Below, one piece after another: positions 3,521 through 24,508 of a DNA stretch of 64,000 bases. The position numbers and the translations under genes were made by a program. The DNA comes from a virus: positions 64,001 to 128,000 of the IMG/VR virus record IMGVR_UViG_3300045988_107814; one strand, 5' to 3'. Under the pieces are notes generated by a model, which was given only the letters and a program-made list of their open reading frames with translations, made no database searches and was not told the DNA's origin. Position 1 is the stretch's first letter; every line of letters begins with the position of its first letter.

Positions 3521-4150
3521 TTATAAATCCAGAAAATTCATAAATGTTTGTATGTCAAGATTATCCTTATGAGATATAAACTCAACGATGAAATTATAGT
3601 TATTATTAAGATTATATATTCTAGCATCTAAATCCGTCTTTTTAGTGCCAGGTAACATACTCGGAGTTAAATATATAACCTTATTCTTTAATATATATCT
3701 AGAAGCTCCATCTGCTGTCTTTCTTAATAAAACGTCATTATAAAATCTCTCATCATTATTTAACCCAGAAATATAATCTGTATCAACACAAGATCTAATA
3801 TAAGAACTCAATTCCTCAAGAGTACTAATTGATTTGTTAAAAGAAGTCACTGCATTATATCTTGTAATAGAATCAAAATTTTCAAGAATTCCAATGTCTG
3901 TTTCGAATCCAACAGTTTTATCATATACAACATCTGTAGAATAAATCTTGTTAAAATATTTATCAGAAAGATTATTACACTTAGTCATTATAATATTTCC
4001 TGGATTAGTTACAAACAATATATTTCCAAATATATTGTGTCTAATGACATAAAAGTATTTATTTGTGTTTGTCTTAATCTTCATGCTTTTCAAATATGAT
4101 TTAAATATGGTAGAACTATTTTTGAGATCTTCTCCAAATATATTATCCAT
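3521..4150 (-). CDS. hypothetical protein
   Basis: 209 aa. Its ATG overlaps the stop of the upstream polymerase fragment in TAATG (4148-4152), suggesting translational coupling. Confidence 0.75.
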   Translation of the reverse strand: MDNIFGEDLKNSSTIFKSYLKSMKIKTNTNKYFYVIRHNIFGNILFVTNPGNIIMTKCNNLSDKYFNKIYSTDVVYDKTVGFETDIGILENFDSITRYNAVTSFNKSISTLEELSSYIRSCVDTDYISGLNNDERFYNDVLLRKTADGASRYILKNKVIYLTPSMLPGTKKTDLDARIYNLNNNYNFIVEFISHKDNLDIQTFMNFLDL

Positions 4151-6192
4151 TATACAGTCTCTCCAATCTGTTTAGGTTTACTATACAAATAACCATCCTT
4201 AAGACTATCATAAATTTCTGTAAAGTTATTAAAATCAGAATTGTCAAAGTCAAACTTAGGTTGATTGAACTTGTCTTTATTTCCAGATACAATAGCATTT
4301 ACAATTTCCAAGTCACGTTTATTATTACATTTAATAAACATACTTCTATCATCCATTTCAGGACTACCAGAAATATCATCAAAATCATGATATGTCATAA
4401 TTCCACTAGGATATTTCACTGTTGTAAAATACTCAATAATATCATCATACATCTCTTCATATCCAGCAAAATGGAACCAACGACTAAAGAATTCAATCCA
4501 GTTATGAGATTGTAGATCATCCATAAATTGTCCTTCTCGTTTCCATTTAACATCATCACGTCTAAATCTATTTTCAAATTCATATACCTTATTAGGAATA
4601 TTTACATGTCCAATCAAAGTTGTTCTAGACATATTAAATTCAGATGTGATAGATGGATACAAAGCTTTATAATCAAAGTCATCCAAGTTATCAAAGATTG
4701 AAATTGGAACACCATTAATTTTCATCTTAGAATAGTCACTGTTATATTTAGGATCCGCAACAAATGCTCCAGGGAAATTAACTTTAGGATTGTTTTGATT
4801 TGTGTTGTTTCCTATAATCATACCATAGTTATAATATGATTTAGCGGCTCTATTTTTAAGATATACTGTCTGACGATAAATCTTAGACCAACGAGTATTA
4901 TCAAGTAATACATTATTGTATGCTGAATCTATATCATTAACTTTGAATTCAATACAATACTGAACAATAGTATCCATAATATTATAAAATACAAATGTTT
5001 CATAATCTTTATATGGAAGATCAGCAAGTTTATTTGTAATATGACTATAATCAAGCTTCTTTACACCACAAGTAATTTCGCCGATATAATCCAATCGATA
5101 ATTTGCAATTGCCTTTTGACCTTTACGTCTAGATGCAAAGTGAATCATTTGATCAAGATATACAGAATAACTACTAATCTTTGCGAAATCATTACGTTCT
5201 TCATATTTGAACTGATTTCTTTCGTCAATCATATACTTTACTTCTTTATATTTAAAATCTGGACTACACATTATACCTTTAGGATTATATCCAAGATTAA
5301 TAATTCTTTGGATAATATACGGAATATCGAAAGCCATATTCCAAGCAAGTACAATATCAGGTTTAATATTGTTGATATAATTAAATAGATGCTTTAGCAT
5401 TATAATCTCATCTTTCTCATCATAGAAATGAAATTGTACAGTCATCTTATCTACTTTATATTTTCTTGCTTGTTTAGATCCACCTACAGCATTGATAAGA
5501 AAACTCTTTAATTTATTATGAAGAGCAGGAGTATGAGTTTCTTTTTCAAACTTTTCAATCAAAGGATTCTTATCATTTCTCAATAAGAATGAATGAACAA
5601 CTAATGACTGATCATCAATAAAAGACACTGCATTAATCGGACACTCACCCAACGAAACAAAATCTCCTTCACAATCAATGATATCAGCCTCAATATCAAG
5701 AAATGATTTAGTTGGTTTGGTATAGCTATTTTCATATGTGTGAGAAAATTGAAATCTAATATTATCTTCAATATCCATATCAGACATAAGAACTCTAGGA
5801 TCATAGTTACACATTGTTCTATTTCCTAATCTATTACCATTTCTGATATTATCATAGAATTTATTAAGAAGTCCTAATCTCTCAGCAATATCTTTCTGTA
5901 ACTGTTGATATGGAACAATTATACATTTACAATCATCTTTCATTGCATATTCCAAAGTATAATTTGGAATTTCTTGTCCATCAAGAAGCATATAATATTC
6001 ATAACTAGGATCAACAATAGTTTCAAGAAATTTCTCTCCTGTATTACAATCCTTGATAATTAAATCAATTGCTCCTGGTTGCCATTTACCAGACAAATCC
6101 TTTCTAGGATAATGGTAAATAGTATTCAACAAAGATAATGGATATCCTTTTGGATATTGACCTATTAAAAAATCATTATCATAATACTTCAT
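4150..6192 (-). CDS. family B DNA polymerase, N-terminal fragment (N-terminal domain, 3'-5' exonuclease, palm motif A)
   Basis: 680 aa, with GGAGG before the ATG. Carries ExoI FLDIEADI (5680-5703), ExoII WNMAFDIPYI, ExoIII YNIMDTIV and motif A DFDYKALYPSI (4648-4680). Motifs B and C are absent. Confidence 0.85.
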   Translation of the reverse strand: MKYYDNDFLIGQYPKGYPLSLLNTIYHYPRKDLSGKWQPGAIDLIIKDCNTGEKFLETIVDPSYEYYMLLDGQEIPNYTLEYAMKDDCKCIIVPYQQLQKDIAERLGLLNKFYDNIRNGNRLGNRTMCNYDPRVLMSDMDIEDNIRFQFSHTYENSYTKPTKSFLDIEADIIDCEGDFVSLGECPINAVSFIDDQSLVVHSFLLRNDKNPLIEKFEKETHTPALHNKLKSFLINAVGGSKQARKYKVDKMTVQFHFYDEKDEIIMLKHLFNYINNIKPDIVLAWNMAFDIPYIIQRIINLGYNPKGIMCSPDFKYKEVKYMIDERNQFKYEERNDFAKISSYSVYLDQMIHFASRRKGQKAIANYRLDYIGEITCGVKKLDYSHITNKLADLPYKDYETFVFYNIMDTIVQYCIEFKVNDIDSAYNNVLLDNTRWSKIYRQTVYLKNRAAKSYYNYGMIIGNNTNQNNPKVNFPGAFVADPKYNSDYSKMKINGVPISIFDNLDDFDYKALYPSITSEFNMSRTTLIGHVNIPNKVYEFENRFRRDDVKWKREGQFMDDLQSHNWIEFFSRWFHFAGYEEMYDDIIEYFTTVKYPSGIMTYHDFDDISGSPEMDDRSMFIKCNNKRDLEIVNAIVSGNKDKFNQPKFDFDNSDFNNFTEIYDSLKDGYLYSKPKQIGETV

Positions 6193-6235
6193 ATATTTTA
6201 CCTCCGTCTTTCTTAACTAACGCATTGCGTAACTT

Positions 6236-6380
6236 AATGACTATTATATATTAGTTTGTCAATGTATAAAAATCGAAAATAACTCCTCACGGTACCCGAC
6301 AACCGTGAGGAATCAAAATAAATTAACAGAGGAAAACAAACTCATAAGAGGAAATCATGTCCCAACCAGACCTTAAGGTA
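6236..6380 (+). promoter_or_regulatory. degenerate third copy of the leader element, with a GC-rich hairpin
   Basis: Contains TGTATAAA (6263-6270), a 9-bp hairpin tcctcacgg-tacccgacaa-ccgtgagga (6284-6311) with no T-run, and ATCATGTCCCAACCAGACCTTAAGGTA (6354-6380), which resembles the ATGATCCCA..GAC.TTAAAGGGA block of copies A and B. It sits in a divergent intergenic region. Confidence 0.35.
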
Positions 6381-6430
6381 ATATTTCAACCTTATTTAAA
6401 TGTTCAAAAATATTAGCGATTTATATGAAA

Positions 6431-6446
6431 AACATCTCTATAATTA
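6431..6446 (+). promoter_or_regulatory. candidate phage promoter, AACAT-N3-TATAAW class
   Basis: AACATCTCTATAATTA is 15/16 identical to 25128-25143 and ends 23 nt before the ATG at 6470. Confidence 0.4.
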
Positions 6447-6469
6447 GCACATAAAGGAGGAAACATTAT

Positions 6470-7420
6470 ATGTCTATGCTTAATTGTGATGTTTTTACAT
6501 CTCCAGAATCTGCAAATAAAGATTCTAACACTACTACTCCAATAGTTAATAATACTTCTGAGAGTACAGATCCACCTAAAAGAAAAAGAGGACGACCAAG
6601 AAAAAGTGAACAGCAGTCTAATACTTTAGAAGTTAGTGCTTCTTCTAATATTCAGAAACAAGATATGCATGTTCCTATGTGTCAATCTGATGAATCATAT
6701 GAAAATAATTATGATGAAACCAATAACATGTTGAAATATTCTATTATGCAATTGGATATCTTGGCAAATGATGTTAAATCAGAACTTGATTCTATTAGAA
6801 AGTCAAAGACCCTAAAAGGTAAATATCAATATATTTCTGATCTTTGTTCTACAGCTAGTAACTTAGTAAGTTCTAAGATTTCCGCTATTAAAGAAATCAA
6901 CTCTGTTAAAACAAACTGTTATAAACTAGAACTACAGAGAGCTAAAGATATTAGAACTTCTCAAGTTAATCAGCAAGATGATGATAAATATATTACAGAT
7001 CTATACAATGCTTATATTAATACTCCTGTTGGCGGAGTTCCTAATCCAGCATTACAATATACATCATCCAATATTGGTGGTAATATCAATGCTTATATGA
7101 ATGGTATGAACACTACTCAAGTTAATGAAGAACAAAATTTCCAGAATTATATGAATAACTTATCTCCAGAACAGAATAGAATGATTATTGGTGATAATCC
7201 TAATATTGAAACTGTAGTTGCATTTGATCCTAATACTGGAGAAAAGGCATTTGAAGTTATTGATACTAGTACAGGTTTATCTGTTCCTAATTATCCAAGA
7301 CCAAATGCCTCTTTATTAGATGATACAAGTGTAGATGTTTCTACAGGTATTGCCTCTAATACTAATATTGGACAAAGTTGGAAAGTTGTTGTACTTGGAG
7401 ATATGCTAAATAAGTTTTAA
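6470..7420 (+). CDS. hypothetical protein with N-terminal AT-hook
   Basis: 316 aa, with AAAGGAGG before the ATG. KRKRGRPRK (6578-6604) matches the GRP-core AT-hook. The C-terminal half is N/Q/T-rich. Confidence 0.75.
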   Translation: MSMLNCDVFTSPESANKDSNTTTPIVNNTSESTDPPKRKRGRPRKSEQQSNTLEVSASSNIQKQDMHVPMCQSDESYENNYDETNNMLKYSIMQLDILANDVKSELDSIRKSKTLKGKYQYISDLCSTASNLVSSKISAIKEINSVKTNCYKLELQRAKDIRTSQVNQQDDDKYITDLYNAYINTPVGGVPNPALQYTSSNIGGNINAYMNGMNTTQVNEEQNFQNYMNNLSPEQNRMIIGDNPNIETVVAFDPNTGEKAFEVIDTSTGLSVPNYPRPNASLLDDTSVDVSTGIASNTNIGQSWKVVVLGDMLNKF

Positions 7421-7483
7421 TCTATATATTATTATAATGATTACATGAAGTAATCAAAATTTTACTTTTAAGGAGTTTAAATT

Positions 7484-7825
7484 ATGGAAATCAACATCGA
7501 TGGAATTGAAACTTTGGCAACTGATTTTTTCAGTAATCTTGACACTTGTCGTCCTGAACCCGTGCAACTTACTTTAGGTGAAGAATGTTATGTAGTAGAT
7601 CAATCTATGATAGATGAAGAGAATGAATCATATGCATTCATTCCTTGTATCGTTGTAAGAATTGATCAGTCTACAAGAATTCCTGGAAGATGGTATTATG
7701 CTCTTCAGGCAAAAGATTCAATTAATGATAAAGCGTTAAACTCTATTAGGGAAGGGGATTTATTATATTATAAATATCTTGAAAATACATCTCCGTTTCT
7801 TATGAAAATTAACGAAGTTAGATAA
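7484..7825 (+). CDS. hypothetical protein
   Basis: 113 aa, with a TAAGGAG RBS. A terminator follows. Confidence 0.75.
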   Translation: MEINIDGIETLATDFFSNLDTCRPEPVQLTLGEECYVVDQSMIDEENESYAFIPCIVVRIDQSTRIPGRWYYALQAKDSINDKALNSIREGDLLYYKYLENTSPFLMKINEVR

Positions 7826-7856
7826 TCTTATCTAACGTAATCAAATTTAAAAAGAG

Positions 7857-7885
7857 GGATGAGTCGAAAGGCTCATTCTTTTTTG
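7857..7885 (+). terminator. rho-independent terminator
   Basis: gatgag-loop-ctcatt stem followed by CTTTTTTG. Confidence 0.65.
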
Positions 7886-7902
7886 TTAAAGGAGGTTAGA
7901 AA

Positions 7903-9207
7903 ATGGCATATAGAGAGATAAAAGTACAAGATGTATCTATAAGTAATCAGTTAAATAAAAATATTACTGTAGCACCTTTGCATCAAAGCTATGCGTTATG
8001 CATAGAATATATGAAACATTGGTTTTTAGAAAAGTTTGAAAAAGATTTCTTTTCTTGGATTCATATAGATGGTAGTCATGTATTTGGAGAGATATCCAAA
8101 ATTGATAAAAAGACTATTATGTCTCATCTAAGTGATGACAAAGCTGCTCTATCTATTATTCCTATGATAGATGATGATTATAATAGAGATAGATTAGATC
8201 AGAATTTATTCGGGATAGATCAATTTATCAATACTACAAAGATTGATAAGTCATTCTTTCAAGATCCAATTAATAGAAGATATATAATGATGCAGATGGA
8301 TATGATATTAATGACATTTACTTATAGAGTAAAAGTACCATCAAGAGCAATGCAGTTAGATTTACAGAAGTATATGAAATTAGCATTCAGAACAAACTTA
8401 TCAGAAACTAAAGATGCTGATTTAGACTATGTATTACCATATCCAATGATGCTATTTGTAGCCAAAGATTTAGGTTTTGAAATTAAAGATGACAGAATTT
8501 GTGAACCTCTTAAATTCCTTACTTATTTAAATAGTCGCTCATATATACCTATCACATATAAACGTTCTAATGTAAATGCTAGAGAAGAATACTTTGTAAG
8601 AGTAGATCATCTTCCAGTTAGATTAGGGATTAAAGATGTTATTAAAGATGACGGTAATAGATATGGTCATATTGCAGATGACTTTGGTATTGAAATGCAA
8701 GTAGAAGCTAGGTTTCCGGCAATGCAATTATATGTATATTTCACAAAAGAAGACTTTACAAAAGTTGCTTTTGGTAAAGAAGCATATAATATTGATAATA
8801 CTCTGATGATGTCTCTGCATTATTATGATGACCCACCGGCAATTAATGATAAGGGATGGAAACTTACAGTCAATGCTCAATGGGAAGAAGATAAACCTGG
8901 TAAAATAAATATTGATCTTAATGAATTATTTGATGGTGAATTGTCAGATATTTCTAAGAATTTATTGTCTAAATTTATTTCTCCTAGTGTATTTATAGAT
9001 ATACAAATCTATAGTGGAGGATTAAAATTAGAAGAAGTTGATATAGATTGGACTAATATGAAACTATCAGCAAACAACCCAACAAATAAACTAGTATCTA
9101 CATTAGCAATTTATATTGATCTTGATTATTTAAATAGTAATAGAATTGAAAGTTATGGTAACAGCTCTAGCAAGGTATTACCAAGTACCCCAGAAAGGTC
9201 TTACTAA
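7903..9207 (+). CDS. hypothetical protein (head-module position)
   Basis: 434 aa, with an AAAGGAGG RBS. It opens the plus-strand block that ends with the capsid gene. Confidence 0.75.
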   Translation: MAYREIKVQDVSISNQLNKNITVAPLHQSYALCIEYMKHWFLEKFEKDFFSWIHIDGSHVFGEISKIDKKTIMSHLSDDKAALSIIPMIDDDYNRDRLDQNLFGIDQFINTTKIDKSFFQDPINRRYIMMQMDMILMTFTYRVKVPSRAMQLDLQKYMKLAFRTNLSETKDADLDYVLPYPMMLFVAKDLGFEIKDDRICEPLKFLTYLNSRSYIPITYKRSNVNAREEYFVRVDHLPVRLGIKDVIKDDGNRYGHIADDFGIEMQVEARFPAMQLYVYFTKEDFTKVAFGKEAYNIDNTLMMSLHYYDDPPAINDKGWKLTVNAQWEEDKPGKINIDLNELFDGELSDISKNLLSKFISPSVFIDIQIYSGGLKLEEVDIDWTNMKLSANNPTNKLVSTLAIYIDLDYLNSNRIESYGNSSSKVLPSTPERSY

Positions 9208-9243
9208 GAACTTTATTATAAAACTACTAAGGAGGTCGATATA

Positions 9244-11856: not shown

Positions 11857-11870
11857 TGGAGGTGAATAAT

Positions 11871-12884: not shown

Positions 12885-12904
12885 ATTTATTAATGGAATA
12901 TCAT

Positions 12905-13025: not shown

Positions 13026-15104
13026 ATGCCAGTAATCGGTGAAGTAGCAAGCCGTAAGCCTGGTTCGTCTGGTTATTCCCATGACCCAATGGCTGGTTTT
13101 GCTAAAGAATTTTTAAATTTGTCTAATTCTATTCTAGAAGAGGCTAGACTAGATTTATATGAAGATACATCTAAGGTTTTAAGAACTAATGTTACAGATG
13201 AAACTATGAAGTCTTTCTTCATGGAAAATTCTGCTGACCCCGCAGGTATGACTACTGAGGAATATGAAGACCATATGGCTATGATGGAACAGGCTTATGA
13301 AAATGATAAGGAAGCCGTTCTTGAACATTGTGGTATGGGTCAATATAACCCAGTTGTAGGTATGACATTCCCGATTCATAAGAATATTATGCTTAACAAT
13401 ATCTTTGATAAGGGTGCTATTCCTAAGTTTGTAGCAACTTCTCCTAAGTTCACAGTTTCTATGGAAACAAGATGGTTGATTGATCCTGAAACTGGTGAGA
13501 AGATCGATATGTGGAAAGAACAATACAAGATGACTGATGCTATTGATAAGGCAGCACCAATGAAGTCTATGTATCTTCCACTCCCAGAAGCTGAGAATAC
13601 TAACATCCTGACAACTCTATTTGGTGTTCCTGAGGATCAGAATAATAACCTTTCTATTGAATCTTATATTTCTGGTCTAGTTGGTAGCCGTGTTGTATAT
13701 CCAGGTCAGACTGTAAATGCTTCTGTTGAAATTACAGATACCACTGATAATACTAAGACTTATCGTATTATTAAGTATACTAATACTACAACTGCCGCTG
13801 TTCTATTAGGTTCTGAATTAGCTGCTACTCCTGTTACAAAGCCTACTGACTTTGATAGTCAGCGTGATAAGCAGTTAGTTGATGAAAAAGGTCAGCCTAT
13901 TGTTGATGGTACTAAAGTAACTGCTAAGGTTGCTGGTGCTGTATTTGATTGGAGAGGTTCGTTTGTTCCAGCTTATGGCGGTTATGATCGTCAGATTTGT
14001 GAACAGTTTGCACTTCCTATGCCTTCTAAGGTAGAACCTGGTACTCTTCCTGGTACTACTAAGCTTACAGTTACTCTTGCAGATGGCACTACTGTTACAA
14101 TCGATAATACCACTAGTGAAGATTCTATTCCTGGTAATTACAGAACTGTAGGTTTTGTATCTGGTTTCTCTAAGGATAATCGTTTTGGTATTACATCTTC
14201 TAACGCTAATGTAGCAGGTGTAATTCTTACTTCCAGAATTGATACTTCTTCTGCTATGCTTAAGACAGCTTCTGTTTCTTGGAGTGTTCGTACTGATATT
14301 ATCGAAATTCCTAACCGAGTTCCGATTAATGTAACTATCAGCCCTGAAGAAGTTAAGGATATCGCAGCTCTGTATCAGATTAACCAGCTTACTAAGGTTA
14401 TGTCTCTGATGAAGATTTCTCTTGGTAACTATAAGGATGATCATATCAGACGTGAACTTGATGAAAGTTTCTTAACTATGCCTGATGATTCTAAGATTGC
14501 TCGTCAGTTTGACTTTGCTCCAACACAGTCTTATGCACTAGATCCAATCGAGTGGCGTCATAAGACATTTATGGATAGCTTAGATACTCATGCTACTCAG
14601 CTTCTCCATGTATTGAATGATCCTAACGTTACATTCAATATTATTGGTCGTGATGATCTTATCCGTAAGATTACTCCTACAGATTACACATATCAGTCTC
14701 CTTCTAGCATTGGTCCTGTTCAGCTAGACTTTGTAAAGACTGTTGTTACATCTGATAAGAGAACATATCAGTTCATTAGCTCTGACAAGCTTCGTGATTC
14801 TAACAACTTAATGATTATTGTTTGCCCAAGAAACTCTGAGAGATTCATTTATCGTATTTATGATTATCAGATGTACTTAAGCAACGAAATCAGAAATATT
14901 ACTAACCCTGCACTTCCAGCTGTTCATGCGTTCGAGCGTTGGGTAATGAAGGATTACCAGCCAGTTCAGGGACGTATTCGTATCCTCAATCCTACTGGTT
15001 TACGTAACTACGGTACTGATTATGCATTCAGCAATGATCCTACTGGTCGTGGTGACGGTATGAAGAGCATTGGTAAGAATGATTTCAACATTGATGCTAT
15101 CTAA
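13026..15104 (+). CDS. major capsid protein (HK97-fold type, large)
   Basis: 692 aa, with an AAAGGAGG RBS. Codon usage is noticeably GC-richer and biased (cgt, ggt, ctt), and it has its own strong terminator. The acidic gene precedes it. The segment ISPEEVKDIAALYQINQLTKVMSLMKISLGNYKDDHIRRELDE resembles the conserved S-x-E-x-x-x-D-(x)n-E-I-D-R-E-L region of T4-type capsid proteins. Confidence 0.65.
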   Translation: MPVIGEVASRKPGSSGYSHDPMAGFAKEFLNLSNSILEEARLDLYEDTSKVLRTNVTDETMKSFFMENSADPAGMTTEEYEDHMAMMEQAYENDKEAVLEHCGMGQYNPVVGMTFPIHKNIMLNNIFDKGAIPKFVATSPKFTVSMETRWLIDPETGEKIDMWKEQYKMTDAIDKAAPMKSMYLPLPEAENTNILTTLFGVPEDQNNNLSIESYISGLVGSRVVYPGQTVNASVEITDTTDNTKTYRIIKYTNTTTAAVLLGSELAATPVTKPTDFDSQRDKQLVDEKGQPIVDGTKVTAKVAGAVFDWRGSFVPAYGGYDRQICEQFALPMPSKVEPGTLPGTTKLTVTLADGTTVTIDNTTSEDSIPGNYRTVGFVSGFSKDNRFGITSSNANVAGVILTSRIDTSSAMLKTASVSWSVRTDIIEIPNRVPINVTISPEEVKDIAALYQINQLTKVMSLMKISLGNYKDDHIRRELDESFLTMPDDSKIARQFDFAPTQSYALDPIEWRHKTFMDSLDTHATQLLHVLNDPNVTFNIIGRDDLIRKITPTDYTYQSPSSIGPVQLDFVKTVVTSDKRTYQFISSDKLRDSNNLMIIVCPRNSERFIYRIYDYQMYLSNEIRNITNPALPAVHAFERWVMKDYQPVQGRIRILNPTGLRNYGTDYAFSNDPTGRGDGMKSIGKNDFNIDAI

Positions 15105-15133: not shown

Positions 15134-15171
15134 ATCGCCTAGTGTCTTGGTTAGGCACTAGGCGATTTTTA
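15134..15171 (+). terminator. rho-independent terminator after the capsid gene
   Basis: An 11-bp stem, atcgcctagtg / cactaggcgat, followed by TTTTT. Confidence 0.85.
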
Positions 15172-15193
15172 TATTGAAAGGAGGATATCAAAT

Positions 15194-16402: not shown

Positions 16403-16447
16403 CAAAAAAAAATAACCGCATCATAAGACACGGCTATAAACAATATC

Positions 16448-16469
16448 GACACTGGAGAAATCCAGTGTC
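16448..16469. terminator. hairpin between convergent genes
   Basis: gacactgga-gaaa-tccagtgtc forms a 9-bp stem. The T-runs on both sides are interrupted. Confidence 0.55.
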
Positions 16470-16477
16470 TATTGTTT

Positions 16478-16966: not shown

Positions 16967-17059
16967 TTTATTTCCTCCTAATGACAAAATATATTTGAGG
17001 ATGACAATCGAGTCATCCTCTTCTTACACCTTAATATTATATAATACAATTATTGTTTA

Positions 17060-17770: not shown

Positions 17771-17800
17771 ATTACCACCACCTCTCCACAGTAATAAAGA

Positions 17801-19351
17801 CTACCACCATGCTTTATTACCATTATCATCTAATCTTTCAAATGGCATACCACCATATTTTATTAGTCTGTTGTGCATTACGTTAAATGCAGTATTTTTG
17901 AGTTGCTTGTTTGTAAATCTTATTTCCTTTGTATCGAGTGCATATTTATCATACATTGGAAGTGCGTTTTTATAATAATTATAAATAGGCTTTACAGAGA
18001 TATCTACTAGATCTATATAGAATGAATTATATTTTCTTGTCCTACCAAATCTCTGTTGATTCTGCGGTAACGATTTTGTAGGTTCAGCCATATTTATACA
18101 TACCATAAGATCATCAATATCCAAACAAGCCCCAGCAGATTTAGACGTTGTTAATATGAGTGTATTATTCTTTGCAGATGCTTTGTCTGGATTAATAGAC
18201 GTATAGATTCCAATATCATTAGCATACTCAGAATAGTTATATCTTAACCAATTATAAAAGAATACTATTGAATTATTGGTAGAAAAGAATAATAACTTCT
18301 TTCCTGGAATCTTACTAATCATATCCATAACAATTCTTGAAATATAGTCAAAGTTTTGTTTCAAGATAACAATATCATTATATGTCATCTTATTAAAACC
18401 ATGATTGCTAAAACAAGGTAACATCTCTTGTTCAGTCACACCACTCTTATAAAGCAATGCAATATAATGAGTATGAGGATCTGATTCAGGATCAAATAAC
18501 GATAGAGTTGGAACATTTCTAAAGTAATTCTGATATACTCTATCTTGATTAGAATCTCCTCTAGATGGTGTTGCTGATAGATATAATGTCTTATATACTG
18601 GAGAAGCATAATCTATATTGCATATATTATCAAAATTAAGATGTGCTTCATCTATTATCTTAAGACCGATACCAAGTTTATTAAACAATACATCTATAGA
18701 TTCCCAACCATTATTCTTTGCATATGAAAGAATAGTATCATGTGTTATAGTGTATACTTTATACTTATCTGGATTGAAATTACTTTTAATAATTTTATTC
18801 ATCATAATAGATCCTGATATAAACATCAACTCAGATGGAATAAGATTAGTATGCTGAAGATATGCATCTTTCCATTGATTAAGCCAATCTACAGAATTAG
18901 TAATAATAACTGTTTTTACATTCAACAATGCAGAGTAAACTATACCTAAATATGTTTTACCTGCACCTGTATTCAATGCCAAAAACAATTGATCATATTT
19001 TTTAGTATAACTATATTCGCCTTTACCAGAAAGAAACTTAAGTGCTAACTCTTGTTTCTCATCTTTAGGTGGAAACTTGATTAATATCTGATTTGTATTG
19101 AGCCTCGGTTTATTATAGGTGTTTTCATAAAATGCATAACAACCTACAATACGTTCTATAAATGGTATATCAACACCTCTTGGAATTGTATATGTTTTAT
19201 TTACTCTATCATAAACAACTCCAATAGATTTGAATGAGAATGTTGTCTTATCATAAATATCAAATAGTTTCTCTAACTCAGGTATATCACCAATATTATA
19301 ATTATTAATCACTATCTTATTATGATAAACAACTAACTTTCTGTTGTCCAT
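17801..19351 (-). CDS. SF2 DEAH-box helicase
   Basis: 516 aa. Walker A LALNTGAGKTY, motif II IIDEAHLNF, motif III LSATPS, motif VI QQRFGRTRK. Confidence 0.85.
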   Translation of the reverse strand: MDNRKLVVYHNKIVINNYNIGDIPELEKLFDIYDKTTFSFKSIGVVYDRVNKTYTIPRGVDIPFIERIVGCYAFYENTYNKPRLNTNQILIKFPPKDEKQELALKFLSGKGEYSYTKKYDQLFLALNTGAGKTYLGIVYSALLNVKTVIITNSVDWLNQWKDAYLQHTNLIPSELMFISGSIMMNKIIKSNFNPDKYKVYTITHDTILSYAKNNGWESIDVLFNKLGIGLKIIDEAHLNFDNICNIDYASPVYKTLYLSATPSRGDSNQDRVYQNYFRNVPTLSLFDPESDPHTHYIALLYKSGVTEQEMLPCFSNHGFNKMTYNDIVILKQNFDYISRIVMDMISKIPGKKLLFFSTNNSIVFFYNWLRYNYSEYANDIGIYTSINPDKASAKNNTLILTTSKSAGACLDIDDLMVCINMAEPTKSLPQNQQRFGRTRKYNSFYIDLVDISVKPIYNYYKNALPMYDKYALDTKEIRFTNKQLKNTAFNVMHNRLIKYGGMPFERLDDNGNKAWW

Positions 19352-19370
19352 TACAATTCACCTCTCAAAA

Positions 19371-19401
19371 TAAAAAGGAACTACTCAAACAGAGTAGTTC
19401 C
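19371..19401 (-). terminator. rho-independent terminator after the beta-prime fragment gene
   Basis: ggaactactc-aaaca-gagtagttcc forms a 10-bp stem, with a T-run on the minus strand (A-run at 19372-19376). Confidence 0.75.
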
Positions 19402-19414
19402 CAAGTTTTACCGA

Positions 19415-21637
19415 TTAACCCATGAAAGTAAACAGTTCATTAGGCTTTCCTTCATTTTCCACAACCGGATTTTCTGCAAGGAATTTCTGAGGCTGAACCA
19501 TATAAAGAAGATCGTATCCAGACGGTTCACTCTTCTTATAGCTTAACGGGTTATAAAGCATTCTTGCAATATCCTGAGACTGAAGAGCTACAGAAATACT
19601 CGGATGAGTTTGAATAGCTTTCTTCAATGTCAGAATTGTATAATTCTGCTGATTAGGAACTGACCAGTCTGGAACGTCAATAATATTTTCAGCAGAACGA
19701 ATCTGATTCATAATGATAATCTCAAGATGAACACTCATAATTCCATCAAGACCAATGTTGTTAAGCTTATCACTCAACGCTTCAAGGAATGTCTCTGCTG
19801 TATAGCTATCTGTATTTGACTTTCTATCGATAACTCTAATAACAGATTCAAGTCTCTCAGACATATCATCATTATGAATACTTTCAAGATCAAACAAAGG
19901 ATAATCTTCACCGATAAGATTGTTTACTGGAATAGTAATATCTTCATCAACATCATTAATATTCTTGAGTTTAAGATACTCAATAAGCCATTCGCTTAAT
20001 TGGAAATTATCCAAGTTAGTAGACTTGATAGGATATTCCATACCAGTAGATTCATTTCTGAGATAAAATACATTTACATATTTAATAATCTCATCAAATG
20101 TTGCATCAATATCGTCATCATCAGATTCATCACTTTCGATAGCAGCAAACACTTCTTCTTGAATGTCACCATCTTTAATAATGAATTTCCATTTCTTAGC
20201 ATCTTCAAATTCTGGATTAATATAGATAGTACCATTATCAACTACAATAAGCTGTTCAAGTTGTTCCTTAGTAAGCATACTAGTATCAAATGTCAACTCA
20301 TCAATCTTTGCTTCGAGAAGATGTTTTGCAGACAACATCATCTGAGTCAACGGTTCTGTCAGATTTGTTACACTATAAATTCCAATATTTACAGCAGGAA
20401 TAATATTGTATAACTCACCCATACACTTTCTACAAACACCTCTACCCTCTGCGGCAGATCTACATTTGATTGGGCTTCTTAAATAGATTTCCTTTCCAAT
20501 AAGATTAGAATTAACTTTAGTGATATTATAAACATCACTAGTTCTATATTCCATTCCCATTGGGTCCAGTCTGTAATATCTATCGGCAATCTTCTTTAAT
20601 GCTACCTCATCAGTAACTTTGTACTTCAAGAAATTACGAGTACCACAATCATATCCAGGATCAATCTTATTTGTATATGGGATAGTATACTTCTTCGTTC
20701 TAGAACAATTAAGAATCATAATTCTACTAAACTGACCAGAACGAGCAGTATTTTTCTTTGACAGAATCTGTGCAATTCTTGCAATCAAAGACTCAAGAAT
20801 ATGAAATGCAACATTAGTAGCACCACCACTAATATAATTAGTGTTTACTACATAAGGGAAAATACCACCCTCGCCATTAGGCTTGACACCAATATTGATA
20901 TACATTTCACGAGCCTGTTTAGGTTTAATACCTTCTTTTGCTCTAAATGCATCAGATAAGCAATGATCTCTACCAATATATTTCTTAGCATTTACAATAT
21001 AATCGATAAGACGATTCATATCTTTTAATGCTTCTGCATTCATCTGCTCAGGTGGGAACTGAGAATAATAGTTGGTCTTATGTCTGTCCATAATTTCTTT
21101 AAAACCAGGGCAGTTATTATACATAAGAATAAAGTCTTCGTTGTTGATAGAATTGTTAAAGAACCACGCAAACTTATCAACAAACTTAAGATTCCTCAGA
21201 GTATCATAGATAATTCTATTAAGATTATGAATAATCATAATATCACTATCATTACCACATCTTTCTCTTGTAGGAATAATAGCAAATCTATCAATATACT
21301 TCTTGATATAGCCGTTGGTAATACCGTCCTTATTAAAGAATACATGATACGGTTTAATTGTTTGACCAGTTTTAATAATAAACTGCCAAACAATGATGTT
21401 GATAAGAGAATAAGACAACGGCAATCTTACTCTCATATTATTATCGAAAACGAATTCAATTTTTGTATTCTGAATTGCCTGAATTTCAATATAATCCAAG
21501 AATACATTTTTCAAATCATTAACATAATCATCAATGTTAGATTCATTGATATCACTTGTTCTAATGGTAACAGAATTACCATTAATCACTGGTGTAAAAA
21601 CACCATAATCATAAATTTGGGCAACGTTAGTGTTCAT
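19415..21637 (-). CDS. multisubunit RNA polymerase beta-prime subunit, C-terminal half
   Basis: 740 aa.
- KPNGEGGIFPYVVNTNY matches the KPDG..I..PI.ANF region.
- NTARSGQFSRIM (within 20701-20760) matches the bridge-helix TANSGYLTRRLV.
- DCGT is conserved.
- LRSPIKCRSAAEGRGVCRKCMGELY (about 20413-20480) matches the VRS..C....GVC..CYG zinc site.
- NLTEPLTQMMLSAKH matches the trigger-loop GEPGTQLTMRTFH.
- No NADFDGD catalytic loop is present, so this is only the C-terminal half. Confidence 0.8.
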   Translation of the reverse strand: MNTNVAQIYDYGVFTPVINGNSVTIRTSDINESNIDDYVNDLKNVFLDYIEIQAIQNTKIEFVFDNNMRVRLPLSYSLINIIVWQFIIKTGQTIKPYHVFFNKDGITNGYIKKYIDRFAIIPTRERCGNDSDIMIIHNLNRIIYDTLRNLKFVDKFAWFFNNSINNEDFILMYNNCPGFKEIMDRHKTNYYSQFPPEQMNAEALKDMNRLIDYIVNAKKYIGRDHCLSDAFRAKEGIKPKQAREMYINIGVKPNGEGGIFPYVVNTNYISGGATNVAFHILESLIARIAQILSKKNTARSGQFSRIMILNCSRTKKYTIPYTNKIDPGYDCGTRNFLKYKVTDEVALKKIADRYYRLDPMGMEYRTSDVYNITKVNSNLIGKEIYLRSPIKCRSAAEGRGVCRKCMGELYNIIPAVNIGIYSVTNLTEPLTQMMLSAKHLLEAKIDELTFDTSMLTKEQLEQLIVVDNGTIYINPEFEDAKKWKFIIKDGDIQEEVFAAIESDESDDDDIDATFDEIIKYVNVFYLRNESTGMEYPIKSTNLDNFQLSEWLIEYLKLKNINDVDEDITIPVNNLIGEDYPLFDLESIHNDDMSERLESVIRVIDRKSNTDSYTAETFLEALSDKLNNIGLDGIMSVHLEIIIMNQIRSAENIIDVPDWSVPNQQNYTILTLKKAIQTHPSISVALQSQDIARMLYNPLSYKKSEPSGYDLLYMVQPQKFLAENPVVENEGKPNELFTFMG

Positions 21638-21720
21638 TATAAATTCCTCCTAAAACTATTGTTATGTAATAGTTTTTGACAAAGTCATTTCCTATTACAT
21701 GTTAATAATATACTAATAAG

Positions 21721-21757
21721 AAAAAAATTAGTCAGTAGCTTAATCGCTACTGACTAA
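21721..21757 (-). terminator. rho-independent terminator
   Basis: ttagtcagtagc-ttaatc-gctactgactaa forms a 12-bp stem. The A-run at 21721-27 gives a T-run on the minus strand. Confidence 0.85.
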
Positions 21758-21778
21758 CCAAATCACATTATAATATAA

Positions 21779-22237
21779 TTAGTGACGAGTCTTGCTCATT
21801 TCCTTTGGTTGCAACTTAGGAGTATTGATATGCTTTTGGCCTTGACCAGAAACATACATACGCTGACCCTGGCGAGCTACAGTCTTAGCTTTGTTAGCAT
21901 ACTTCTTCTTAATAGCAGCTAAAAGCTTACGTTCCTGAATACGATTCTTTACAAGCTTCTTCCAAAGATTATCATTATTATCCTTGGCCAACTGTAAAGC
22001 AGCCATGCCTGTACGACGAGTCAAATCATCATTCTTATTTAAACGAACAATTGTCTTACGACTAATTTTCTTAGCTTCCTGAAGTACATCTGCATTTTCA
22101 AGAAGTTCACGCTTTTCTTCATCAGAATCAGAATAATGATCATCATAGAAGAAAGCTTCCTGAAGTTCATCCATATTTAAATACATCTGAACTTCTCTTG
22201 TGTCTTGAGCTAACTGCTCATTAGTATAAAGTCCCAT
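21779..22237 (-). CDS. small protein with acidic N-terminal and very basic C-terminal halves (MGLYT N-terminus)
   Basis: The ORF track starts upstream at 22276 (non-ATG start). The ATG at 22237 has GGAGG 9 nt upstream (152 aa). Codon usage is biased (ctg, cgt), and it has its own terminator and promoter-like motif, suggesting high expression. Confidence 0.7.
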   Translation of the reverse strand: MGLYTNEQLAQDTREVQMYLNMDELQEAFFYDDHYSDSDEEKRELLENADVLQEAKKISRKTIVRLNKNDDLTRRTGMAALQLAKDNNDNLWKKLVKNRIQERKLLAAIKKKYANKAKTVARQGQRMYVSGQGQKHINTPKLQPKEMSKTRH

Positions 22238-22299
22238 AGGATTAATCCTCCTTAATAAAATAAAATTTAATTGCAATTAAAAATATTTCGCATACTAAT

Positions 22300-22313
22300 A
22301 CCAGTCTTTTTTA
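22300..22313 (-). promoter_or_regulatory. candidate phage promoter, AACAT-N3-TATAAW class (variant)
   Basis: The minus strand reads AACAATTATATAAA, 62 nt upstream of the ATG at 22237. Confidence 0.25.
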
Positions 22314-22408
22314 TATAATTGTTATGATTTTAAAGTACGAATAACAATTTGATAATAGATTATAATTATACGTAATAGGTAGTCTGACGAAAATTTGGAG
22401 GTTTTAGT

Positions 22409-24508
22409 ATGGACATTACTCAAATTGTTAAAAGTAAAACAACAGATCTTTATAAAAAAGATATGTTAGATGCACTTAAGTTATCTTTTCCAGGTATGAC
22501 AGAAACTGATTTAATGGAAGCTATTGATTATTCTATTACAAAAAGAGGTAGCGATAGTAAAGCATATCTAGATAATAACTATAAGAAAATAAGAGAAAAC
22601 AGAACTCTATTTGAAATTACTGATTATATTATACAGAGAGAACCAATCATTACAGTTTCAGGTGTAATGTTTAGAAAACATGGTTATTGTCCTAATCCTT
22701 TTGTAATGCTTATTCAGGAATTCTTGGAGCAAAGAGGTATTTATAAAAAGACAATGTTTAAATATCCTAAAGGTTCTGAGGAATTTGAAAAGTATAATAT
22801 TCTTCAGTTATCAGAAAAAGTATCTGGTAATGCAATGTATGGTGCTTCTGGTAATCATACAAGTATCTTTTATAATCTTTATGTTGCACAGAGTATTACA
22901 ATGCAAGGTAGAAGTTGTATTGCATCAGCTATTATGTTATTCGAAGCAACAATGGCTAATAATGTAAAGTTACTTAGTCTGAATGATGCGGTGACTTTTA
23001 TTACAAATATTAGACGTGAGCCTGTATTAAAGTATCCAGATGAATTGATTATTGATAAAGATAATTATGTAACTGTAGAAGAATGTTTCTTTAAGATTCT
23101 TTATAGTTCTGGATTCTATTGGATTCCTACAGAAAAAGAAATGACTCTTATTTGGGATATTCTTAATCAGTGTAATCAGCATGAATTGAATAAGATTTTC
23201 TATAAGAATAATCTATTTTGGTTTGTTGATAATAGCCTTGTTATGAACAAGATTATTTCTATTCTTTCTACTCTTGATGAGCCATTTATTGATCCTAATA
23301 GTCCTCCTGAATCTATTAAAGGTATGATGGATGAATTATATGATATGATCTATGAATGGGTTTATTATGATAAACAATATATGGATAGAATTGATAGAAC
23401 AGAAAATATGTACAGATGTGTATCTATGCTTACAGATACAGATAGCTGTTTTATTTCTTTTGATGGATGGTATAGATATATTCTTGATAAGACATTTAAT
23501 ATTCCTATGAAGATTAAAGAGCTTGAAATTGAAGAAAAAACAGGTGAAGTAAAGGAAGCATTTGATATAGGCTATGACTATGACTTTTATAAAGATGAAA
23601 TTATTGAAAGTCAGAATATTATTAGACCTGATGTAATTATTCCTCAGGTTGGTTTTCGTTGTAGTATCATCAATATTCTTGCAAGTATTATGGGAAGACT
23701 TGCTATTGATTATATGTGTAAGTATTCTGATAATTCTAATTCTACTATTTGTCATGATGGTTCTCGACGTAAAAGTTTCTTTATTCTTAAGAATGAATTC
23801 CAACTTAAACGTGCTTTGATTACAGATGGGAAAAAGAATTATTGTGCATATCAAGAACGTCAAGAATCTAATATTATTCCAAAAGAAAAAGCTCTTGCAA
23901 TTACAGGCATGCCGATCAAAAAAGTAGGTGTTCCAGAATCTACAAAAGTTAGACTTCAAAAAATTCTTCTTGAACAAATTCTAGATAATCCTGGCGAAAT
24001 TTCTCAAGTAGAAATTGTAAAACAGTTAGCTATATTCGAAAAACAAATTATTCAAGCTATCGAAAATGGTAGTAAAGAATATTTTAAACCAGAAAGAATC
24101 AAAGCTAAAGATGCTTATGATAATCCTATGAGAGAATCTGGTGTTAAGGCCGCAATAGCATTTAACTTCCTCAAGGATGACGATATGGAAGCTATTGATC
24201 TTGATGAAAGAAATAGTATTCTAAATATTAAAGTAAATATTGATCTTAAAAATATTGAGAATATGAAAGATAGATATCCAGATGTTTATAAACGTGCTAT
24301 TGAACTAATGTCAACAAGAAAAGAATTTGAAAAAGGAATTACTGCTATCGCTATTCTAGACAATATGCAAGTACCTGAATGGATTAAGGAATATATTGAT
24401 TATACTACTATTGTAAATGATAATCTTAGACCATTTCCTTGCGAAGCCTTAGGTATTGATAGAATGGACAACAAGAATATTAATTATACTAATATTTTGA
24501 AGTTTTAG
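22409..24508 (+). CDS. family B DNA polymerase, C-terminal fragment (fingers motif B, palm motif C, thumb)
   Basis: 699 aa, with a TTGGAGG RBS. Carries motif B KVSGNAMYGASG (22817-22852), motif C MLTDTDSCF (23426-23452) and the KKNY (KxY) motif. It has no exonuclease motifs and no motif A. Confidence 0.85.
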   Translation: MDITQIVKSKTTDLYKKDMLDALKLSFPGMTETDLMEAIDYSITKRGSDSKAYLDNNYKKIRENRTLFEITDYIIQREPIITVSGVMFRKHGYCPNPFVMLIQEFLEQRGIYKKTMFKYPKGSEEFEKYNILQLSEKVSGNAMYGASGNHTSIFYNLYVAQSITMQGRSCIASAIMLFEATMANNVKLLSLNDAVTFITNIRREPVLKYPDELIIDKDNYVTVEECFFKILYSSGFYWIPTEKEMTLIWDILNQCNQHELNKIFYKNNLFWFVDNSLVMNKIISILSTLDEPFIDPNSPPESIKGMMDELYDMIYEWVYYDKQYMDRIDRTENMYRCVSMLTDTDSCFISFDGWYRYILDKTFNIPMKIKELEIEEKTGEVKEAFDIGYDYDFYKDEIIESQNIIRPDVIIPQVGFRCSIINILASIMGRLAIDYMCKYSDNSNSTICHDGSRRKSFFILKNEFQLKRALITDGKKNYCAYQERQESNIIPKEKALAITGMPIKKVGVPESTKVRLQKILLEQILDNPGEISQVEIVKQLAIFEKQIIQAIENGSKEYFKPERIKAKDAYDNPMRESGVKAAIAFNFLKDDDMEAIDLDERNSILNIKVNIDLKNIENMKDRYPDVYKRAIELMSTRKEFEKGITAIAILDNMQVPEWIKEYIDYTTIVNDNLRPFPCEALGIDRMDNKNINYTNILKF

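Follow-up and report, generated by a model that had tools for sequence, protein, structure and literature searches.

The window analysed here covers 64 kb of a roughly 215-kb genome and comes from an uncultured giant (jumbo) phage, a diverged AR9/PBS1-like phage with a phage RNA polymerase subunit gene. The AR9/PBS1-like jumbo phages are relatives of phiKZ that encode RNA polymerases of their own. Two divergent open reading frames in the window, separated by a gap of 16.2 kb, encode the two parts of a family-B DNA polymerase (PolB), and both were found at precisely the coordinates given in an earlier reading made from the DNA letters (hereafter the sequence-only reading).

4150..6192, minus strand: PolB N-half gene, 680 aa (ORF, Pfam, PHROGs, homology to AR9 gp132)
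13026..15104: major head protein, between the halves
17801..19351, minus strand: SF2 helicase, between the halves
19415..21637, minus strand: phage RNA polymerase beta subunit gene (phrog_3015, E 4e-53)
22409..24508, plus strand: PolB C-half gene, 699 aa (ORF, Pfam, PHROGs, homology to AR9 gp152)

The head gene, the helicase and the RNA polymerase subunit gene, which the sequence-only reading had placed between the halves, were all found in the 16.2-kb block. The last of these is the single subunit gene of a phiKZ-type multisubunit RNA polymerase within the window. The major head protein had no match among GenBank phages by tblastn. The ORF at 3521..4150 (minus strand) was considered as the counterpart of AR9 g131 (DnaQ-like exonuclease) and was rejected, as it showed no similarity; it belongs to no Pfam family, and its PHROGs matches were weak (E 0.04–0.06) and to families of unknown function.

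In the N-half, the 3'-5' exonuclease and the first palm segment, which bears motif A, are accompanied by an N-terminal domain and a helical tail. The C-half contains the fingers (motif B), the palm (motif C and KxY) and the thumb, together with an N-terminal head and a helical insert.

5683..5697, minus strand: ExoI, DIEAD, residues 166–170; D166, I167 and E168 invariant in 13 and 42 aligned N-halves
5326..5343, minus strand: ExoII, WNMAFD, residues 284–289; W284, N285 and D289 invariant in the same alignments
4972..4986, minus strand: ExoIII, YNIMD, residues 403–407; Y403 and D407 invariant in the same alignments
4651..4680, minus strand: palm motif A, DFDYKALYPS, residues 505–514, carrying the first catalytic aspartate
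22817..22852, plus strand: motif B, KVSGNAMYGASG, residues 137–148; K137, N141 and G145 invariant
23432..23446, plus strand: motif C, TDTDS, residues 342–346, the second catalytic aspartate pair; D343, T344, D345 and S346 invariant
23831..23842, plus strand: KxY motif, KKNY, residues 475–478; Y478 invariant in 37 sequences

The family-B exonuclease set of ExoI (DxE), ExoII (NxxxFD) and ExoIII (YxxxD) is complete and lies wholly on the N-half. The polymerase set of A (DxxSLYPS), B (KxxxNSxYG), C (DTD) and KxY is also complete and is divided over the two chains, with A on the N-half and the other three on the C-half, so that neither product is a complete enzyme, as had been claimed. In the alignments, the catalytic residues are all invariant across 13–42 homologues per half, down to 23–33% identity; in motif A, the residues D505, D507, Y512, P513 and S514 are invariant with AR9, MarsHill and phiR1-37 included. 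The N-half was said to stop about 165 aa after motif A, and we counted 166 aa. The C-half does begin with further sequence ahead of motif B, but its length is 136 aa and not about 145 aa. Each gene has its own translation signals, as had been noted, with GGAGG 8–12 nt before the ATG in both and the stop codons TAA and TAG. The usual state of PolB, a single polypeptide, is absent; the two ORFs lie on opposite strands.

Pfam detected DNA_pol_B_exo1 (above cut-off) in the N-half together with DNA_pol_B over profile positions 63–95 only, and the C-half was matched by DNA_pol_B over profile positions 122–208 and by PF20286 (divDNApol). In PHROGs, each half hit a "DNA polymerase" family of its own (phrog_3011, E 1.6e-53; phrog_2927, E 1.1e-55). 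By tblastn, the N-half was 33% identical to AR9 gp132 over residues 9–575 (E 2e-57), and the C-half was 26.5% identical to AR9 gp152 over residues 15–699 (E 4e-55). The N-half profile matched RB69 gp43 residues 96–437 (E 2e-23), and motif A aligned with the RB69 motif FDLTSLYPS in the profile-to-PDB comparison. Profile matches also aligned motif B of the C-half with its counterparts in archaeal PolB and Pol alpha. Taken together, the motifs, Pfam, PHROGs and separate translation signals bear out the claim that one family-B PolB is encoded as two separately translated genes.

The AF2 models were based on alignments of 37–42 sequences, every one at least 47% identical. The N-half model matched RB69 gp43 in Foldseek (E 4e-15); its N-terminal and exonuclease domains were confident, and residues 470–528, which include motif A, had a pLDDT below 50. 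The best BFVD match of the C-half model was AR9 A0A172JI59 (E 8e-27), and the low-confidence stretches of this model coincided with motif B, motif C and the KxY region. As the C-half model alone had no significant PDB match in Foldseek, the cut was mapped by profile-to-PDB sequence alignments and not by structure. The models suggest that each half folds incompletely alone, although the shallow alignments are another possible cause of the low pLDDT in the catalytic segments.

The break had been placed inside the fingers, with roughly 170 extra residues at the junction that were proposed as heterodimerisation interfaces. Our alignments put it instead at the boundary of palm and fingers, between motif A, which it closely follows, and the first finger helix. 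In AR9, MarsHill and phiR1-37, the N-halves end inside a conserved helix block (residues 556–592), and the C-halves begin about 15 aa ahead of the conserved Y15..F27-P28; the gene ends of the window and of these three phages are homologous at 26–33% identity.

4153..4437, minus strand: clade-specific C-terminal extension of the N-half, residues 586–680 (about 95 aa), defined by alignment
22409..22663, plus strand: N-terminal head of the C-half, residues 1–85, before the first finger helix

The extension is missing in AR9, MarsHill and phiR1-37 and is weakly conserved beyond about 70% identity; AF2 predicted two short helices in it (pLDDT 48–76). The head was predicted as a small alpha/beta unit (pLDDT 71–88), and its residues Y15, L23, F27, P28, N56, P79, I80 and T82 are kept down to AR9. 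Most of the junction sequence is contiguous in a single-chain relative; it is a lineage-specific insert that is crossed by the break, not a later addition. Of the proposed interfaces, only residues 586–680 are clade-specific, and most of the remainder occurs unbroken in that relative.

This rare single-chain relative (P0349/P0389, 1224–1231 aa) was found on three contigs from three samples and consists of the N-half, about 12 aa and the C-half. It is 31% identical to the window in the N-half (E 5e-60) and about 30% in the C-half, and in P0349 the tail of the N-half and the head of the C-half are contiguous. The nearest relative of the fused form, contig k141_981447, carries the N-half, a 92-aa ORF and the C-half, all on one strand. 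No relative of this fusion turned up in the IMG/VR search. The succession of fused, one-ORF-apart and dispersed genes may record the splitting and scattering, or the re-fusion, of an essential enzyme gene; in a neighbour-joining tree of N-halves, the bootstrap value was 31% on whether the fused lineage is basal. The fused and the one-ORF-apart arrangements permit asking whether the split was ancestral or reversed, and they are ready-made constructs for studying chain assembly.

The split is common to Staphylococcus jumbo phages, Yersinia phiR1-37, a Fusobacterium phage and hundreds of metagenome contigs, and metagenome matches to the two halves number over 1300 and over 600 proteins. Among the matches listed, complete relatives of the N-half had about 630–704 aa and those of the C-half about 696–793 aa. 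All but one of the 150 closest 50%-identity cluster representatives of the C-half had about 630–760 aa or were fragments. Seven independent IMG/VR contigs (60–87% identity) have the divergent layout of the window, with a gap of 16.2–18.9 kb, and more distant contigs have same-strand or convergent halves; in relatives at 45–53% identity, the N-half precedes the C-half on the same strand. Among 19 IMG/VR contigs with both halves, the gap was 16–32 kb or more and the layout varied. On one contig, the overlap of two loci was checked base for base and agreed.

The sequence-only reading regarded the dispersed arrangement as unusual, but it is the rule in the AR9-type group, as seen in AR9 (15 kb), MarsHill (21 kb) and the 19 contigs. 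It also proposed a single inversion with a breakpoint inside an ancestral polB. This does not agree with the gene ends, which are common to AR9, MarsHill and phiR1-37, and with the orientation and spacing, which differ by lineage; together these indicate that the gene was already split before the rearrangements. The comparison of synteny in relatives, suggested as a test of the inversion, points to a split older than the rearrangements. Judging from gene order, inversions did occur, after the split. The two-gene PolB is the normal, previously annotated condition in the AR9 phage group and not a new rearrangement.

We consider it very probable that the two genes encode two subunits of one replicative family-B DNA polymerase of the AR9/PBS1 jumbo-phage type. 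The N-subunit would provide the N-terminal domain, the proofreading exonuclease and the palm strand with motif A, and the C-subunit would provide the fingers (motif B), the remaining palm (motif C and KxY), the lineage-specific helical insert and the thumb. Most likely, the two halves form a physical heterodimer. The active site would assemble only upon association of both chains, with the C-terminal helices of the N-subunit beside the N-terminal head of the C-subunit, and the predicted composite enzyme would be expected to be catalytically active. The split is old and common to the whole lineage, and later genome shuffling separated the two genes; the divergent 16-kb layout is one of several. 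Outside the 64 kb covered here, the genome may encode a second polymerase.

The layout could in principle be an assembly artefact, or a recent inversion could have cut an intact polB and left two fragments of a contiguous gene. The halves are divergent, one inversion could part them, and phiKZ-related genomes are known for frequent inversions (PMC5105663). However, the seven independent contigs have the same divergent layout, the two overlapping loci of one contig agreed in every base, both halves carry an SD, an ATG and a stop of their own, the same gene ends recur in AR9, MarsHill and phiR1-37 at 26–33% identity, and the catalytic residues of both halves are invariant. A layout that is kept in close relatives and varied across the 19 contigs excludes both misassembly and a recent break. 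We regard this explanation as exceedingly improbable and, for practical purposes, as refuted. A joining of the halves after synthesis, whether through a split intein, known from Nanoarchaeum PolB, or through trans-splicing of intron halves at the RNA level, is equally hard to credit. About 95–150 aa at the C-terminus of the N-half and about 85 aa at the N-terminus of the C-half are unassigned, and the N-half gene of a relative contains a group I intron (L026:11461-11828). Nevertheless, Pfam detected no intein/Hint domain in either half at E up to 0.1, the aligned junction segments lack conserved Cys/Ser/Thr or His-Asn boundaries, and these segments are kept as ordinary sequence in the fused relative. 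The AR9 N-half ends about 95 aa earlier, which leaves no room for an intein. Rfam gave no match in the whole 64-kb window at gathering thresholds, so no intron halves were detected.

It is also conceivable, though unlikely, that the halves are largely independent, with the N-half acting as a stand-alone exonuclease with a vestigial palm stub and the C-half as a self-sufficient polymerase like that of phiKZ/EL. PhiKZ-like phages encode exonuclease and polymerase as separate chains, and both active-site aspartates were reported on the polymerase chain (PMC3201878; PMC7824862). The wording of Iyer et al. permits a looser coupling, which we counted against the two-subunit reading, and the AF2 model of the N-half is confident only in the N-terminal and exonuclease part. 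On the other hand, the motif A residues on the N-half are invariant in all lineages examined, and ahead of motif B the C-half lacks any invariant aspartate or segment resembling motif A. In the model of the C-half folded alone, the catalytic core did not resolve. The natural fusion and the near-adjacent arrangement tie the halves together and support one heterodimeric enzyme with its catalytic aspartate motifs on different chains.

The closest known systems to this two-subunit PolB are those of AR9/PBS1 (Takahashivirus), Staphylococcus S6 and MarsHill. As in the window, PolB is in two pieces with homologous gene ends, the exonuclease with motif A and the motifs B, C and KxY are on separate chains, and the genes lie at distant loci (15–21 kb) in genomes with phage multisubunit RNA polymerase genes. 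AR9 gp132 and gp152 were annotated and discussed in print and are continuously expressed replication genes (PMC5312081). In GenBank, gp132 is described as "exonuclease and partial catalytic domain" and gp152 as "catalytic subunit"; g132 and g152 are 15 kb apart, and each has an early promoter of its own. The literature searched contained no structural or biochemical characterisation of the AR9-type enzyme. The window differs from AR9, where the C-half gene lies upstream on the same strand as the N-half gene; the identity to AR9 given above is low in both halves, and the N-half of the window has the extra tail of about 95 aa. The clade of the window is large and uncultured, has about 29% G+C and is represented by contigs of 210–250 kb. 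In Yersinia phiR1-37, g170 and g167 (annotated "B-family DNA-polymerase" and "catalytic subunit") are divergent as in the window, but merely 1.7 kb and two genes lie between the halves. Its C part seems to be split again, with g167 at 420 aa and the thumb matched by another protein of 242 aa.

In phiKZ/EL (PF20286), proofreading and polymerase are likewise on two polypeptides encoded apart, and the thumb region of the window C-half matches PF20286 and phiKZ-like polymerases. The window and phiKZ/EL are both group 1 jumbo phages (PMC7824862). In EL, however, both catalytic aspartates were reported on the polymerase chain (PMC3201878), whereas motif A of the window is on the exonuclease chain, which places the cut inside the palm and not between exonuclease and palm. 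A functional precedent for a two-chain PolB is Aeromonas phage 25, whose gp43A and gp43B co-purify and polymerise DNA (PMC2988022). Aeromonas 25 and 44RR also have PolB cut between motifs A and B, but their genes are adjacent, with a homing-endonuclease gene or an untranslated spacer between them, in contrast to 16.2 kb and opposite strands in the window. Their cut is at the finger tip, so the first finger helix is on 43A of phage 25, whereas that of the window (PNPFVMLIQEFLEQR) is on the C-half; moreover, the Aeromonas split is recent and limited to few phages, unlike the old split of the window. In Methanothermobacter (PolB1/PolB2) and Nanoarchaeum, a family-B polymerase also comes from two distant genes; these cuts are nearer the C-terminus, between motifs B and C, and the Nanoarchaeum pieces are rejoined by a split intein. 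The window enzyme would be an extreme natural case in which the two metal-binding aspartate motifs of the PolB palm are on different polypeptides. For annotation in this large, mostly uncultured jumbo-phage group, the replicase should be sought as two genes, and neither half should be labelled a pseudogene or a misassembly.

Upstream of both genes in the window, the leaders have a similar order of elements.

6193..6245, minus strand: N-half leader with a TATAAT-like box, the imperfect palindrome TACGCAATGCGTTAGT (6216–6231) and the SD GGAGG (6201–6205)
22355..22408, plus strand: C-half leader with a TATAAT-like box, the element TACGTAATAGGTAGTC (22369–22384) and the SD GGAGG (22397–22401)

The related 16-mers in both leaders start 39–40 nt ahead of the ATG. 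Their likeness by itself is not above the AT-rich background, and a pattern search with the 16-mer is not independent because the pattern was derived from these two sites. An unbiased best-14-mer comparison of the window leaders gave 11/14 against a background maximum of 12, which is not significant. Folding of eight leaders gave Z-scores of about 0 to -2.0, with no thermodynamic support for a stable hairpin. The gp43 proteins of T4 and RB69 repress their own mRNA through a translational operator. By analogy, we tentatively suggest that a common cis-regulatory element, evolving in concert, could link both polymerase genes and balance the dispersed subunits, although we hold this to be doubtful. 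The leader elements shared in some relatives hint at a way to keep two scattered subunit genes at matching dosage. The leaders of both halves are, in two relative lineages, identical or about 85% identical over 24–60 nt, with an imperfect palindrome between the TATAAT-like box and the SD, and no other copy of the shared sequence was found within the approximately 40 kb sampled per genome. The unbiased comparison was significant in three relative lineages; the third, 21431_3, which belongs to the window's own close clade, showed a weaker excess with 13/14 matched positions.

The two open reading frames that had been taken, in the sequence-only reading, for separated parts of one family-B DNA polymerase (PolB) were found in place with the motifs claimed for them:

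4150..6192, minus strand: PolB N-half gene (680-aa ORF; exonuclease motifs and motif A)
N-half residues 166-170: ExoI, DIEAD
N-half residues 284-289: ExoII, WNMAFD
N-half residues 403-407: ExoIII, YNIMD
N-half residues 505-514: palm motif A, DFDYKALYPS
22409..24508, plus strand: PolB C-half gene (699-aa ORF; motifs B, C and KxY)
C-half residues 137-148: motif B, KVSGNAMYGASG
C-half residues 342-346: motif C, TDTDS
C-half residues 475-478: KxY motif, KKNY

In the N-half, 166 aa lie between motif A and the C-terminal end. For the N-half, Pfam reported DNA_pol_B_exo1 and, of the DNA_pol_B profile, positions 63-95 alone; the C-half matched that profile from position 122 on, together with PF20286 'divergent family B DNA polymerase'. 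PHROGs holds a separate 'DNA polymerase' family for each half, phrog_3011 (E 1.6e-53) and phrog_2927 (E 1.1e-55). Each gene has GGAGG 5' of its ATG and its own stop codon, and the 16.2 kb between the halves carries genes for the major head protein, an SF2 helicase, a phage RNA polymerase beta subunit and virion proteins. The earlier observation is thus confirmed.

In tblastn against GenBank phages, AR9 and PBS1 of Bacillus came first for both halves (33% identity, E 2e-57, for N-half residues 9-575; 26.5% identity, E 4e-55, for C-half residues 15-699), followed by Staphylococcus jumbo phages (S6, MarsHill), Yersinia phage phiR1-37 and Fusobacterium phages, while phiKZ-like Pseudomonas phages matched the thumb region only. 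The AR9 polymerase was also the top structural match of the C-half AF2 model in BFVD (E 8e-27). The window, with a G+C content of ~29%, is therefore part of a diverged, uncultured jumbo phage, one of those that encode RNA polymerases and that Iyer et al. place in 'group 1' (PMC7824862). AR9 has two PolB genes, both on the minus strand, 15 kb apart and each with its own early promoter; g132, the counterpart of the N-half, is annotated as 'exonuclease and partial catalytic domain' and g152, the counterpart of the C-half, as 'DNA-polymerase catalytic subunit', and both genes are among the continuously expressed replication genes in the AR9 transcriptome (PMC5312081). The two genes lie on one strand 21 kb apart in MarsHill and are divergent, 1.7 kb apart, in phiR1-37, and the polymerase (738 aa) of Fusobacterium phage JD-Fnp1 is also of the C-half type. 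Papers on phiKZ relatives have described a 'split subunit DNA polymerase' from about 2011-2012 on (PMC3201878; PMC5105663). A two-gene PolB is thus what AR9/PBS1-like jumbo phages normally have, and it has been annotated before; the earlier view of the divergent, dispersed layout as unusual has to be given up. What is new here is the same architecture in a new, very divergent uncultured clade; the analysis also locates the cut exactly, shows how the gene arrangements vary, brings in natural relatives with fused or near-adjacent halves, and points to a possible regulatory element common to both genes.

The gene ends were identical in position in AR9, MarsHill, phiR1-37 and the metagenomic clade when 13 N-halves and 13 C-halves were aligned. 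Beyond motif A the N-halves continue across a conserved helical block (window residues about 552-592), and the C-halves start about 15 residues ahead of a conserved Y..L..FP segment. Profiles of both alignments were run against PDB sequences; the N-half profile spans residues 96-437 of RB69 gp43 and archaeal PolB to about residue 423, and the C-half profile spans archaeal PolB from about residue 451. By these profile alignments the cut is placed at the palm/fingers boundary, directly after motif A, and not inside the fingers as had been proposed. With the cut after motif A, the two metal-binding aspartate motifs are on separate chains, motif A (D505/D507) on the N-half and motif C (D343/D345) on the C-half, whereas in EL/phiKZ both aspartates are reported on the polymerase chain (PMC3201878). 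The window's cut also differs from that of Aeromonas phage 25, where 43A keeps the first finger helix and the cut is therefore at the finger tip.

Matches to the two halves numbered >1300 and >600 metagenome proteins, and the complete ones among the matches listed were about 630-704 aa (N-half relatives) and about 696-793 aa (C-half relatives). Both halves were found together on 19 IMG/VR contigs; a script gave their positions, and one locus overlap was checked base for base:

7 contigs, 60-87% identity: divergent, like the window, gap 16.2-18.9 kb
6 contigs, 45-53% identity: same strand, N-half upstream, gap 16-25 kb
2 contigs: same strand, C-half upstream, gap about 25 kb
3 contigs: convergent, gap 18-32 kb
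1 contig: same strand, far apart, gap at least 78 kb

An assembly artefact was rejected, as the divergent layout is shared by the seven contigs at 60-87% identity and both halves recur on all 19. A single inversion through an intact polB had been offered as the origin of the layout, and the comparison of synteny in relatives speaks against it: divergent, same-strand and convergent layouts all occur with unchanged gene ends. Constant ends combined with a changing arrangement argue that the PolB gene was already in two pieces before the rearrangements; inversions later relocated the pieces and did not generate them.

Most of the 'extra' junction sequence (N-half about 530-585, C-half 1-85) is contiguous in a fused relative, P0349. 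By this alignment the junction sequence is an insert specific to the lineage; it lies between motif A and the fingers and is traversed by the cut. Only the tail at N-half residues 586-680 is restricted to the window's clade; AR9, MarsHill, phiR1-37 and P0349 lack it. Pfam revealed no intein domain in either half, and Rfam no intron fragment in the 64-kb window.

The core of the earlier reading, one PolB from two genes, is borne out by motifs, conservation and the fused relative. Every exonuclease and polymerase catalytic residue is conserved without exception in both halves, among homologues as distant as 23-33% identity, and no motif-A-like segment was found within the C-half. When 1.84 billion cluster representatives were searched exhaustively with the C-half, 1093 matched, and the best 150 of these were about 630-760 aa or fragments with the sole exception of P0349 (1224 aa). 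Its residues 25-554 align to window N-half residues 22-575 (31% identity, E 5e-60) and its residues 625-927 to window C-half residues 49-360; in alignment it equals the N-half, about 12 residues and the C-half, and Pfam finds exo1, DNA_pol_B and divDNApol together on this chain. Three contigs, each from a different sample, carry P0349 or its cluster mate P0389 (1231 aa), and on a contig of the nearest relative of P0349 only a 92-aa ORF lies between the halves, with the ends of neighbouring reading frames touching:

L170:18-3692: single-chain PolB gene (P0349)
L171:780-4475 and L172:177-3872: single-chain PolB genes (P0389)
L173:7877-11950 (contig k141_981447), one strand: N-half (615 aa), 92-aa ORF, C-half

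The 92-aa ORF matched no known family. Such single-chain versions of the AR9-type polymerase (1224-1231 aa) are rare. P0349 is a classic 'Rosetta stone' fusion, which argues that the products of both halves act together, with the N-half C-terminus near the C-half N-terminus; the halves probably form a heterodimer. The closest relative of P0349 is P0312, a 649-aa protein of C-half type (46% identity). In a neighbour-joining tree of N-halves rooted on Aeromonas gp43A, the fused and adjacent forms cluster with 98% support, and their placement relative to the AR9 group and the window clade has 31% support. The P0349 lineage could possibly have retained the ancestral fused state; a single ancient split followed by re-fusion in that lineage is the simpler reading because the cut is shared across lineages.

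The N-half AF2 model (pLDDT 78) was confident at residues 1-465, which matched RB69 gp43 in Foldseek (E 4e-15, about 465 columns), and fell below 50 at residues 470-528, motif A included. The C-half model (pLDDT 70) was confident in the head (1-80), a helical insert (190-320) and the thumb (510-690); its main segments below 50 were 138-169 (motif B), 325-344 (motif C) and 456-500 (KxY), with shorter low-confidence stretches at 82-99, 387-405 and 694-699, and alone it had no significant match in the PDB. The best-conserved segments of each chain modelled alone are thus the worst predicted, which would fit a palm that needs both chains; shallow alignments could contribute.

Both PolB genes of the window have a TATAAT-like box, then a related 16-mer starting 39-40 nt 5' of the ATG, then GGAGG:

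6216-6231, minus strand: N-half leader 16-mer TACGCAATGCGTTAGT, imperfect palindrome between TATAAT-like box and SD
22369-22384, plus strand: C-half leader 16-mer TACGTAATAGGTAGTC, imperfect palindrome between TATAAT-like box and SD
Related leader elements in loci of relatives: L020:6098, L098:9950, L036:9949, L096:9950, L163:9950, L026:9952, L100:9936, L002:9969, L004:9966

The likeness of the two leaders is striking in three relatives. In the 28887_70 / 32038_55 / 10346_241 lineage an identical 24-mer, AATCGTACGTGTTTGGGACGATTA, stands 5' of the C-half in 3/3 contigs and 5' of the N-half in both contigs where that gene was recovered. The two leaders of 18495_1 share about 85% identity across about 60 nt, with GTGCCTGATTAGGTAC in each, and both leaders of 29305_1599 share the short core GCC(C)TATTTAGGG. 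No other copy of the shared sequence was present in about 40 kb sampled for each of these three. An unbiased best-14-mer comparison of the two leaders, each against its background maximum, gave 14/14 in the 28887_70 / 32038_55 lineage and 18495_1 and 13/14 in 21431_3 (background maximum 11-12), but 12/14 in 29305_1599 and 11/14 in the window, not above their maxima of 13 and, in AT-rich background, 12. Folding energies and z-scores of the leader RNAs were unremarkable. The element is possibly a shared operator through which both PolB genes are kept co-regulated; in the case of the window itself, that idea is a lead and not a finding. The same layout, with TATAAT box, hairpin TGATTACATGAAGTAATCA and SD, was seen at 7430-7483 (plus strand) 5' of ORF 7484-7825, and the GATTAC...GTAATC arms of this hairpin recur in C-half leaders of close relatives (L088, L110); therefore the box-plus-palindrome design may mark a promoter class, not polymerase genes alone.

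On the minus strand at ~6290-6320, a G+C-rich hairpin, CCTCACGGT...ACCGTGAGG, with a T-rich run after it, lies upstream of the N-half promoter-like box in the space that separates the divergent genes 4150..6192 and 6470..7420; it looks like a terminator, though no upstream gene is obvious on that strand. After the N-half gene, on the same strand, a 209-aa ORF (3521-4150) shares base 4150 with the N-half stop codon, which suggests translational coupling. It has no Pfam family, and its PHROG matches, to families of unknown function, are only weak (E 0.04-0.06). At the corresponding place a relative has a gene of some 200 aa with weak similarity (E 0.16; L002:11919-12527), whereas AR9 holds there g131, a DnaQ-like exonuclease without similarity to it. 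The product could be an accessory subunit. The same 55%-identical relative (JGI Ga0307249_10000692) has a tRNA-Met (CAT) gene about 170 nt 5' of the N-half gene (L002:9753-9828, plus strand); the 64-kb window has no tRNA gene.

A group I intron (Rfam RF00028, 77 bits) was found inside the N-half gene of a 60%-identical relative (L026:11461-11828, IMGVR_UViG_3300018495_000001), about 1.5 kb into the gene near motif A; the C-half gene on this contig is about 470 nt above the expected size, with no Rfam match there. In phiR1-37 the C-half appears cut once more (L006:1850-2578 and 2911-4173, both minus strand). Its g167 has only 420 aa and ends at about window residue 465, and a separate 242-aa protein (UniProt G4KKA3, by its length probably g164) matches the thumb of the window C-half model (TM 0.61), so this polymerase may consist of three pieces. 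Directly downstream of the C-half region, a single 4663-aa ORF (25170-39161, plus strand) carries Peptidase_C39-like (residues 3426-3541) and phage tail lysozyme (residues 3940-4110) domains, and its product is probably a giant virion or tail-associated lytic protein.
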